A stretch of 64,000 bases of DNA from Promethearchaeia archaeon. GTDB lineage: Archaea; Asgardarchaeota; Lokiarchaeia; Sigyniarchaeales; SOKP01. Position numbers and translations under genes: made by a program. A model generated the notes under the pieces. That model worked only from the letters and a program-made list of their open reading frames with translations. It was not told where the DNA came from and made no database searches. The stretch's first letter is position 1; every line of letters begins with the position of its first letter. The stretch lies in contig JAHQWH010000155.1 in NCBI GenBank assembly GCA_029856105.1, positions 71,699 through 135,698 on the forward strand, in the 5' to 3' direction. Positions 24,397 through 27,172 of this stretch are shown one piece after another.

Positions 24397-24710
24397 ATTT
24401 TAAATATCCTAAATTATTTTTAAGAAGAATAAGACAAGAATGCTCATAATATTCCCTAAACTTATCAAGTAAAATTGATGATGACTATTAAATTATGTTA
24501 AAAAATATTTTGTATTTCTTATATAGATAAGATTTTAGCTTAAGTAATTTTACTTATAAGACTCTCTGTTTCAATAATTTTATATGTGAATACTAGATGA
24601 TTAATCTAGCAAAAAATAGTTAAAAGTTATTTATCATCCTTCAAAAAGAGGTTAATTTTAAAATTCATTAGAGTTATTTTGTTTTTAAGAAAAAAAAAGT
24701 ATCGTAATTA

Positions 24711-25847
24711 ATGATGTCTGAAACTTATGAAAACTTTATGATTTATGGATTAGAAAGTACCGGAGAAAAAGTAAGGTTAGATATAACAGAAGAAGATTTT
24801 CGCGCTAATAATGGAACGAACGTATTAAATCCTTTCCAAGTACTAGTTATCGTAAAAGAAGGGTTGAGGAGAATCTACATTTGGAAGGGTATTGAGTCCC
24901 CCGTTAGAAAAAAGTTTATTGCGTCGCAAGTCGCAGCACAATTACAAAACGATTTAGTCGTTAATGGCCATTTTCATAGGTGTAAGATAATTTCGGTCGA
25001 CCAAGGAGACGAACCACGCGATTTTTTGAGAGCGTTTGATTTTGAATCAACAGAAATTCCAGAAATCTCAGAAGCTGACAAAAGCGAGTTTAGACAGATT
25101 AACTCTATTTCTACGGGTACAACATCTAAAACTATAGAAAAGAAGGTTTATCAATGGGGGGGACCTCCTCCTGCTTTAAAAGCTAATAGTACAATCATCA
25201 AACAAACAAGAGAATCCGATAAAGCAATTACGCCAAAAATTAAAGACATTAATAAACCTCCCGAATTAGATACTAAGAAAATTATCGAAAAGATTGTAGC
25301 AAACGAGGTCCCAGCCAATTTTAAGCGTCAAAATTTGATTTTAGGTAACTTCGAAATTTACGGAGCAGTTATCAAGAAAGCTAAAATTTTCGGAAAAGAA
25401 GTAGAAGAGATCGATTGGGAACCAGTTAACTCCTTACCTCACGAAGTAGTCGAGCTAGATAATCGCACTTTAAGAATTTATTTCGATGGAGAAAATGGGA
25501 CAATCAAAGGACTAGAAATACTTCAAAAAATGGGTGCTCCTCAAATTGAAAAAAAAGATAGCAAAATAGATTATAATAAATGGACAGTAAAAGATTTGAA
25601 GCAATATTGCCAAGAACGCAACATAAAAATACCATCGTGGTATAAAAAAGCAGATATTATAAAGCTTATTCAATACGGGCCCACTCAAGATGCTACTGAA
25701 CAAAAAATTGACTATAACAAGTGGACGGTAAAACTACTAAAGGAATTCTGTCAAAAAAATAATATTAAGGTTCCATCTTCCTATAGAAAAGCGGATATCA
25801 TACAACTTGTGAATGATTTTAATAATAGTATACCAAATAAAGATTAA
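24711..25847 (+). CDS. Gelsolin-like domain protein with two C-terminal HeH/SAP/Rho-N-like repeats
   Basis: IYIWKGIESPVRKKFIASQVAAQL...ISVDQGDEPRDFL matches the gelsolin repeat signature (W.G..s......a...a..l...v.qG.Ep..F); two WTVKxLKxxC...KADII repeats at the end. Confidence 0.75.
   Translation: MMSETYENFMIYGLESTGEKVRLDITEEDFRANNGTNVLNPFQVLVIVKEGLRRIYIWKGIESPVRKKFIASQVAAQLQNDLVVNGHFHRCKIISVDQGDEPRDFLRAFDFESTEIPEISEADKSEFRQINSISTGTTSKTIEKKVYQWGGPPPALKANSTIIKQTRESDKAITPKIKDINKPPELDTKKIIEKIVANEVPANFKRQNLILGNFEIYGAVIKKAKIFGKEVEEIDWEPVNSLPHEVVELDNRTLRIYFDGENGTIKGLEILQKMGAPQIEKKDSKIDYNKWTVKDLKQYCQERNIKIPSWYKKADIIKLIQYGPTQDATEQKIDYNKWTVKLLKEFCQKNNIKVPSSYRKADIIQLVNDFNNSIPNKD
25563..25811 (+). repeat. 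Intragenic duplication, two 36-aa units 141 nt apart
   Basis: KIDYNKWTVKDLKQYCQERNIKIPSWYKKADIIKLI versus KIDYNKWTVKLLKEFCQKNNIKVPSSYRKADIIQLV. Confidence 0.9.
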
Positions 25848-26131: not shown

Positions 26132-27172
26132 ATGAAAACAAAATCGCAGATTAATATTTTGACCTATATAGGCCGCAGAATATTAATTTCAATTCCTGTT
26201 TTATTTGGGATCATAACAATAGCCTTTTTAATTAGTAGGGCGGTTCCAGGTGATCCTGCTCTTAATAGGCTTCCTGTTCAAGCCCTTGGTAGATTATATG
26301 AAGCGGAACGAGAGAAATTAGGATTAAATCAACCAATTATTGTACAATATTTAATATTTATAAGATTAATATTAACCGGGGATTGGGGATATTCATTAGT
26401 AATATCACCAGATACCGAAATCTGGTTTCTGATATGGGAGCGTTTGCCAAGAACATTAGAACTTATCTTCATAAGCATGTTCATTGCAACATATATAGGA
26501 CTTAAAATAGGGAAAAAAACAGCTTTTAAAAGAAATAAATTTCAAGATAGTATGAGTAGAGTTATACTTTATTTGATTATGGCTATTCCGGGATATTTAA
26601 TAGCATTGTCTACTTTATATTATTTCTCAGCTACGGATATTAAATTATTTCCTTTTTGGGGCTATAAAACGCCAGGCATAGGAGACCCACCTACGATTAC
26701 TTACTCTCGAATAATAGATTCACTATTAGTTTTTAGGTTTGATATTACAATTGATTATTTATATCATTTATTTGTTCCAATTATTACACTGGTTATTATT
26801 CAACTTGTAATAATAACTAGGCATACCAGATCAAGTATGATAACTATTTTACAGCAAGATTATATTCGAACTGCCATAGCAAAGGGAGTAGATGATAAAA
26901 CAGTGCTTAAAAAACATGCACTAAAAAATGCTATTCCGCCTGTAATTACTCAAATTACAATGGGTTTTCCTACTCTACTTGGAACTATGATACCAATTGA
27001 AGTAGCGTTAGAGATTAAGGGGATTGGTCAATGGTTTAATAATGCAGTATACCTCAAAGATTATAATATAATTGTTGCATTAGTATTTGTATACGGAATA
27101 ATAGCAATATCTTTCAATCTAATTGCAGATATTGCATATTCAATAGCAGATCCAAGAATAAGATATAAATAA
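26132..27172 (+). CDS. Di/oligopeptide ABC transporter permease (DppB/OppB family), orphan
   Basis: PGDPA, GDWGYS, RLPRTLEL, QDYIRTAIAKG (EAA loop), HALKNA, DPRIRY. Confidence 0.92.
   Translation: MKTKSQINILTYIGRRILISIPVLFGIITIAFLISRAVPGDPALNRLPVQALGRLYEAEREKLGLNQPIIVQYLIFIRLILTGDWGYSLVISPDTEIWFLIWERLPRTLELIFISMFIATYIGLKIGKKTAFKRNKFQDSMSRVILYLIMAIPGYLIALSTLYYFSATDIKLFPFWGYKTPGIGDPPTITYSRIIDSLLVFRFDITIDYLYHLFVPIITLVIIQLVIITRHTRSSMITILQQDYIRTAIAKGVDDKTVLKKHALKNAIPPVITQITMGFPTLLGTMIPIEVALEIKGIGQWFNNAVYLKDYNIIVALVFVYGIIAISFNLIADIAYSIADPRIRYK

Follow-up and report, generated by a model that had tools for sequence, protein, structure and literature searches.

Asgard archaea carry gelsolin-like actin regulators, for which Akil et al. 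(2020; PNAS, PMC7444086) defined the classes ProGel, 1DGelX and 2DGel. The 1DGelX of Thor bound rabbit actin with a dissociation constant of 7.7 µM, as against 337 µM for ProGel; it severed filaments independently of calcium, promoted nucleation at low ratio and gave no crystals, and the authors proposed an actin side-binding element in its C-terminal extension (PMC7444086). Domain X, within this extension, was predicted by I-TASSER to be a coiled coil at low confidence (PMC7444086), and a 2019 preprint reported that it could not be produced alone. Akil et al. (2022; PMC9433394) counted two 1DGelX genes for MK-D1 and three for GC14_75. In Lokiarchaeum ossiferum, B35_GelX (UYP44381.1) has one GH domain, an X domain similar in fold to the one in Thor_GelX, and additional C-terminal sequence; it was enriched in Lokiactin co-immunoprecipitation, with a mean log2 actin/IgG ratio of 2.28 on our interpretation of the table, and the function of its X domain was called unclear (Radler et al., 2026; Nature, PMC13716822). 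Here we describe a relative of these proteins encoded in a 64,000-nucleotide stretch of a Promethearchaeia archaeon genome (GCA_029856105.1, contig JAHQWH010000155.1, C161 in our numbering, positions 71699-135698), which is referred to below as the window. The source assembly spans 3.66 Mb in 238 contigs and is 92% complete and 6% contaminated.

After its single gelsolin domain, the window protein continues into a C-terminal region that is not gelsolin-like, the arrangement by which 1DGelX/GelX proteins are recognized, and it is very probably an actin-regulator homologue of the GelX class. The gelsolin fold is common to it and to eukaryotic gelsolin and villin, with three to six repeats there and one here, so that it lacks the three or more repeats of the eukaryotic type. 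The original prediction, made from the sequence alone, had not recognized the architecture from eukaryotic gelsolins. The architecture is not novel, since it fits the published Asgard 1DGelX/GelX proteins. What is new here is that the X region splits into a widespread, Asgard-specific beta-rich domain and a variable, exchangeable tail, while the class itself was already known.

Domain architecture of the window protein

The window gene and its domains are as follows, with positions given in the window and in amino acids (aa), and with isoelectric points (pI), predicted local distance difference test scores (pLDDT) and independent E-values (i-E) against our family hidden Markov models (HMMs):

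24711..25847, + strand: probable GelX-class gene, an ATG-started open reading frame (ORF) of 378 aa, stop codon included in the coordinates (43.6 kDa, pI 8.6)
24732..25049, + strand: gelsolin-fold domain, aa 8-113, found by Pfam, phmmer, Foldseek and family HMM (pI 5.1 for aa 1-118)
25065..25268, + strand: disordered, basic, P/T/K-rich linker, aa 119-186 (pLDDT 48-60, pI 9.57)
25269..25538, + strand: X core domain, aa 187-276, modelled as one helix and five antiparallel strands (pI 5.4)
25560..25676, + strand: HeH/SAP repeat 1, aa 284-322 (pI 9.6; found by Pfam; family HMM i-E 4e-21)
25701..25820, + strand: HeH/SAP repeat 2, aa 331-370 (pI 9.5; Pfam HeH at aa 340-369; family HMM i-E 4e-21 to 7e-22)

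The ORF exists as originally described and its domain limits had been placed correctly to within a few residues. A gelsolin-type domain had been expected at the N-terminus, and its fold is closest to that of the Asgard gelsolins. A phmmer search of the PDB returned six chains at E <= 10, the four ranked first being Asgard gelsolins (7c2h, 3.5e-4; 7c2f, 6e-4; 7c2g, 9.5e-4; 7whg, 0.038). In an AlphaFold2 model of the whole protein built with 72 homologues, the mean pLDDT was 84.7 and exceeded 95 over aa 11-110; its best Foldseek match was actin-bound Thor ProGel (7c2f_B; E 3.4e-6, TM score 0.85 on the target, root-mean-square deviation 2.2 Å), followed by the Heimdall and Thor 2DGels, villin, adseverin and gelsolin. 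Foldseek matched 78 chains at E <= 1e-3, and among the matches listed every row was a gelsolin-family chain. W58 and G60, which form the WxG named as a gelsolin signature motif (PMC9433394), are invariant in the 72-sequence alignment, as is F69.

In the phmmer alignment, R66-K67 of the window protein lies opposite the D-E of 'TVDEKF' in calcium-regulated 2DGel3, and R66 is conserved in at least 90% of the family. The acidic D-E residues of 2DGel3 are presumably calcium ligands. R66-K67 in place of this pair would agree with the finding that Thor 1DGelX acts independently of calcium (PMC7444086).

Between the gelsolin and X domains, the linker contains a W-x-G-P-P-P motif (aa 146-154, window 25146-25172) that is conserved in the clade of two-HeH proteins described below, and P154 is present in at least 90% of the 72 sequences. 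Such a short proline run adjoining an actin-binding domain recalls profilin-recruiting tracts.

The middle domain, which had gone unrecognized in the original prediction, found no Pfam, PDB-sequence or clear fold match. Modelled alone from 83 rows (pLDDT 90.9, predicted TM score 0.79), it comprises a helix at residues 188-197 and then five strands to residue 273. Foldseek gave no PDB match at E <= 1e-3 (best E 0.26, alpha-crystallin), with TM scores of 0.33 or below throughout the matches listed. None of 48,161 chains reached Z >= 5 in VIA-align (best Z 3.4), where hot-dog, PAS/GAF and roadblock folds are among the weak matches. A PDB sequence-profile search returned only 5kca_A (E 0.0046), with no single stretch passing; 35 X-domain members had no Pfam match at E < 0.01; and the top ESM Atlas scores (0.79) belonged to unnamed Promethearchaeota clusters and were below our lead level. 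A cryptic second gelsolin repeat was considered and rejected, the hhalign probability between the X and gelsolin profiles being 0.2%. As modelled, the X domain is beta-rich and has no clear match among solved structures, which does not by itself prove a novel fold.

The two C-terminal repeats had been assigned to the HeH/SAP type, and four Pfam models of this type (PF12949, PF02037, PF10281 and PF07498) bear this out, each matching two stretches above its cut-off (HeH 38.1 against 28.9, SAP 33.6 against 23.9, Ish1 30.4 against 26.6, Rho_N 27.7 against 24.9). The repeats are identical at 26 of 37 residues and 75 of 111 bases, and both are modelled as helix-loop-helix units (helices 293-302 and 313-322; 340-349 and 360-373) at a pLDDT of 88-97. 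Across 20 homologues, W338, T339, V340, L343, C347 and K360 of repeat 2 are invariant and R359 is kept in at least 90%. The HeH units retain R/K-K-A-D/E-I/L at the start of helix 2, the position at which SAP/HeH consensus sequences have basic residues. Their basic charge sets the units apart from the acidic gelsolin and X domains, and this holds across the family: median pI values are 9.3 for HeH (70 units), 6.5 for gelsolin (80 domains) and 5.7 for X (82 domains).

The characterized proteins could be compared with the window protein by description. Thor 1DGelX (KXH72031.1) is likewise Asgard-specific and has one gelsolin domain and a non-gelsolin C-terminal region, the X part of which was called a coiled coil, whereas here the X region consists of linker, beta-rich domain and HeH. 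A Thor-labelled genome (locus L062) encodes a 362-aa relative with gelsolin, X and HeH domains that is 38% identical to the window protein, and the published Thor 1DGelX ran near actin on gels, which fits the size of this relative (PMC7444086). We infer that Thor 1DGelX shares the domain architecture of the window gene; the window protein differs in having two HeH units and in belonging to a Loki-type clade. B35_GelX, listed at about 40 kDa as against 43.6 kDa for the window protein, is by its description either an orthologue or a paralogue. The terms SAP, HeH and LEM do not occur in the text, figures not covered, of the Akil et al. (2020) supplement and 11 supplement files of Radler et al. 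(2026), and HeH/SAP domains on Asgard gelsolins are unmentioned in the literature searched, where domain drawings in figures could show more. Some relatives are named 'HeH/LEM domain-containing' or 'Rho termination factor N-terminal domain-containing protein' by the NCBI pipeline. Databases thus annotate the tail and papers describe the gelsolin head, and we found nothing joining the two in the literature searched.

Family distribution and exchangeable tails

A word-indexed search at E <= 1e-3 found 427 homologues. Of these, the top 120 are 54-91% identical to the window protein, all but four cover 90-100% of it, and those with a named source are all 'hypothetical' proteins of Lokiarchaeota, Promethearchaeota or Hermodarchaeota. 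An exhaustive search of representatives returned 264 proteins at the same threshold. We classed 269 proteins by family HMMs: gelsolin, X and two HeH units was the most frequent architecture (117/269), ahead of gelsolin with X (49), gelsolin only (44), X-containing proteins without a gelsolin domain (24), gelsolin with X and one HeH (17), HeH-only arrays of 2-6 units (11), two or more gelsolin domains (4) and gelsolin with two X domains (3). All 11 scanned HeH-array proteins match the SAP, HeH or Rho_N model, each over a cut-off.

Loci were counted in a scan of one genome per species with a 20-sequence alignment as the query, which gave 193 relatives, all archaeal by title; the counts below refer to the best 80 of the 193. 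These come mostly from Asgard taxa (Promethearchaeota/-ia, Hod-, Hermod-, Thor- and Odinarchaeota), the rest being labelled 'uncultured archaeon'. The gelsolin and X domains are both present in all 79 full-length loci. One HeH unit is found in 46 loci, two in 12 and none in 18; X is duplicated in three more, and the last locus runs off the end of its contig. How often the repeats accompany gelsolin orthologues had been raised as a check on the original prediction; the association is stable, with HeH on 58 of the 80 orthologues or paralogues.

A maximum-likelihood tree of 83 rows was built from the gelsolin-to-X part only, with the HeH columns left out. On this tree the window gene falls with the other two-HeH proteins in a single clade of 13 members (Shimodaira-Hasegawa-like approximate likelihood ratio test, SH-aLRT, 98), whose sister is a one-HeH protein. 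The presence of HeH requires five changes, as against means of 21-27.5 after shuffling, and 0 of 500 shuffles gave a value as low. Because 58 of 80 loci carry HeH and it changes so rarely on the tree, the gelsolin-X-HeH fusion looks old and stable. The second HeH seems to have arisen by tandem duplication within one Loki-type lineage.

An X-only profile matched 269 of 400 genomes of the phylum, mostly with 1-4 copies, among them 71 of the 90 that are of high quality. Matches were found in 58 of 85 genera, and in the family to which the window belongs 130 of 134 genomes had one. Several families were unmatched at E <= 1e-5 (e.g., f13, 0/31), reflecting either absence or divergence. The source genome of the window has five gelsolin+X paralogues (on C161, C129, C61, C54 and, weakly, C238), and all five of its X matches co-occur with a gelsolin domain; HeH is found on the window gene only. 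This genome further carries a 2DGel (C67) and a ProGel-sized gene (C27). It also has two very similar Lokiactin-type genes (C74:18383-19528 and C160:7906-9024; Pfam Actin 441.7 and 426.7 bits), which may stem from two strains given the 6% contamination, and three further actin-family genes, one of which (C61:30418-31521) lies 5.5 kb from the C61 gelsolin+X paralogue.

The C-terminal tail is exchanged for other modules in parts of the family. L031 (4995-6032), L037 (4995-6047) and P0137, which are nested within a one-HeH clade, carry HHH_5 at the C-terminus in place of HeH (30.6, 23.4 and 27.0 bits against a cut-off of 27). L066, L067 and L083 have no HeH and end in a K/R/P/T-rich tail of 41-48 residues with a pI of 11.6-12.0. 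HhH motifs and basic tails of this kind are non-specific binders of the DNA backbone. The occurrence of three chemically different modules of this sort at the same position argues that the job of the tail would be the binding of a polyanion, most simply DNA. Such swapping among DNA-binding-type tails is the best, if indirect, support for the idea of an actin-to-DNA tether, the original prediction having proposed that the protein could link actin filaments to the chromosome or to RNA.

Another recurrent ending is the C-terminal peptide RRxLPKIPSKDD, found in 18 of the 80 proteins, of which seven lack HeH and 11 have one HeH (e.g., L062, L080, L043 and L068). The window protein keeps only 'SIPNKD' (window 25827-25844) of this peptide, and a protein encoded on another contig of the same genome (C129:3068-3997, - strand) also ends in R-R-x-L-P-K-I-P-S-K-D/E. 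This sequence fits RxxPxxP, the class I SH3-ligand pattern, and R-R-x-L-P-K-I-P could be a docking motif for some partner.

By its distribution among predicted proteins, HeH is a mobile module. In the source genome of the window, units of the GelX subtype were found on two further recognizable proteins:

C161:18547-19851, + strand: IFT52-GIFT/ABC_transp_aux-like ORF (PF23355, 31.0 bits, cut-off 27.2)
C98:9900-13337, + strand: topoisomerase VI (Topo VI) subunit B homologue (Topo-VIb_trans, 93 bits)

The GIFT-like ORF is a 435-codon frame (427 aa from the first Met) about 52 kb upstream of the window start, in which an acidic coiled linker is followed by one C-terminal HeH (29.6 bits, cut-off 28.9). 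The Topo VI-B homologue carries an HeH-like unit at aa 977-1009 of the frame, followed by a long C-terminal extension; this unit was found by the family HMM only (i-E about 1e-7), and not by Pfam. A GelX-subtype HeH also stands N-terminally on an ORF that matches Rho_N, and a further ORF has a weak match. That the repeats might occur only as promiscuous tails on unrelated proteins had been named as a possible refutation of the original prediction; HeH does occur on Topo VI-B, the GIFT-like ORF and others, and on GelX it is a stable component (58/80).

Gene neighbourhood and transcription

The G+C content is about 31% across the whole window. The upstream neighbour of the window gene is an MFS transporter on the opposite strand, and the downstream neighbour in 11 closely related loci (L012-L022) is a convergent TPR regulator, separated from the GelX gene by about 40-60 bases in 10 of the 11 and by about 2.3 kb of matchless sequence in L022. 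In the window, a further ORF lies between the two:

26132-27172, + strand: ABC-permease-like ORF of 346 aa, standing alone and flanked by the GelX and TPR regulator genes

With the MFS gene on the opposite strand upstream and the TPR gene convergent downstream, the window gene looks monocistronic. Both neighbours are kept in the 11 close loci, and MFS and TPR-like genes also flank L023; in the comparison of loci they were absent at L027, L033, L062 and L080. Operon context and synteny in these loci pointed to no functional partner.

Contigs from RNA libraries (three libraries from two studies) that are 90-95% alike overlap parts of the gene:

24400-25813: RNA contig X3
24892-25332: RNA contig X4
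24731-25451: RNA contig X5

These contigs come from relatives, and with DNA carry-over possible they give a weak hint that the gene is expressed. In X3 (2,235 bases), the 3' part of the gene precedes the 5' part with 792 other letters between them, an order that an assembly artefact or a circular unitig would probably explain.

Candidate roles of the HeH tail

We propose a mechanism in which the N-terminal gelsolin domain would bind actin, as ProGel and 2DGel do in crystal complexes, and the X domain would give a second contact, making a calcium-independent severing or capping protein out of a single domain that binds weakly. A second actin contact in X is suggested by its strict co-occurrence with the gelsolin domain and by the affinity gap between ProGel and 1DGelX. 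The long disordered linker would provide reach, and the two basic HeH/SAP units would attach it in a sequence-nonspecific manner to a polyanion, for which chromosomal DNA is the likeliest candidate, so that actin filaments or their remodelling could be coupled to the nucleoid. As a whole, this mechanism of a GelX actin regulator with X as second actin contact and the HeH pair as DNA anchor is tentative, and we put it a little short of an even chance; of the readings of the tail, DNA anchoring has the best support.

Several points weigh against it. At the gelsolin end, PF00626 reached 19.5 bits on the window protein (aa 43-106) in hmmscan, against a cut-off of 21; at the same place it scored 21.8 bits, over the cut-off, in the whole-genome search, and 35 of 72 family members match it at E <= 0.01 (best 4e-6). 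HeH is lacking in 21 of the 80 loci, and the RRxLPKIP-type endings (seven) and mixed polar tails (five) of HeH-less proteins offer no DNA-binding-type module, so DNA anchoring would not be the role of every member. The GIFT-domain ORF carries HeH without an evident DNA role. In human U2OS cells, GFP-1DGelX stayed in the cytoplasm, outside the nucleus, and was concentrated near the endoplasmic reticulum (ER) and nuclear membrane (PMC7444086). The characterized Thor 1DGelX and B35_GelX may or may not carry HeH; if the former does, its published severing and localization results extend to the architecture of the window protein. Finally, acidic actin, RNA or anionic lipids would be just as plausible ligands of basic helical tails.

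The first of these ligands would make the HeH pair a second actin-binding element for side binding, bundling or severing, and not a nucleic-acid anchor. Villin adds a small helical module, the headpiece, to the C-terminal end of its gelsolin repeats, and provides a parallel for such a pair; the window protein has HeH/SAP units at this place instead. The acidity of actin and the basic HeH units would suit such binding, as would the roughly 40-fold tighter binding of 1DGelX to actin compared with ProGel (PMC7444086). We nevertheless regard it as unlikely: gelsolin+X proteins without HeH are common, comprising those 21 loci and four of the five own-genome paralogues, so that X is the constant partner; HhH replaces HeH in one sub-lineage; and Topo VI-B bears a unit of the GelX subtype. 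If the ligand were instead RNA or a ribonucleoprotein, transcripts or ribosomes might be tethered to actin. An association with RNA is known for Rho N-terminal domains and for some SAP domains, the Rho_N model scored 27.7 bits over a cut-off of 24.9, and several relatives bear the NCBI name 'Rho termination factor N-terminal domain-containing protein'. Since the HeH, SAP, Ish1 and Rho_N models all cover the same 35 residues, the Rho_N name is uninformative on specificity, and the HhH and K/R-rich alternative tails together with the Topo VI-B association point to DNA; we hold RNA tethering to be decidedly improbable.

The tail might also be a general electrostatic or protein adaptor, for example for anionic membrane lipids or another protein; the window protein would then simply be a further GelX paralogue, adapted to a place in the cell that has nothing to do with the chromosome. 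In eukaryotes, the LEM subtype of HeH has a protein as its ligand (BAF), and the docking-motif-like RRxLPKIPSKDD endings on many relatives would suit an adaptor, as would the position of GFP-1DGelX at ER- and nuclear-membrane-like regions of U2OS cells (PMC7444086). On the other side, there is no amphipathic or lipid-binding signature, and the HeH units keep their basic helix-2 start (R359 at least 90%, K360 invariant); we consider this reading improbable.

A DNA-anchored GelX protein would have counterparts in eukaryotes. In MRTF/myocardin (RPEL and SAP) and emerin (LEM, actin-binding), a single chain unites an element that binds actin with a bihelical module of the SAP/LEM type; their actin-binding elements are of other kinds, homology with the window protein lies only in the HeH module, and their context is nuclear. 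In its boldest form, which we consider fairly unlikely, our reading would have GelX-HeH couple Lokiactin filaments to chromosomal DNA for actin-based positioning, anchoring or segregation of the nucleoid, with X as a new actin-binding fold. If true, this would be a prokaryotic forerunner of the eukaryotic links between actin and chromatin, as in LEM/emerin-actin and RPEL-SAP. The analysis turns the unexplained X into two concrete questions, namely whether X binds actin and whether the tail binds DNA. If both were true, the coupling of actin to the chromosome before eukaryogenesis would become directly testable.

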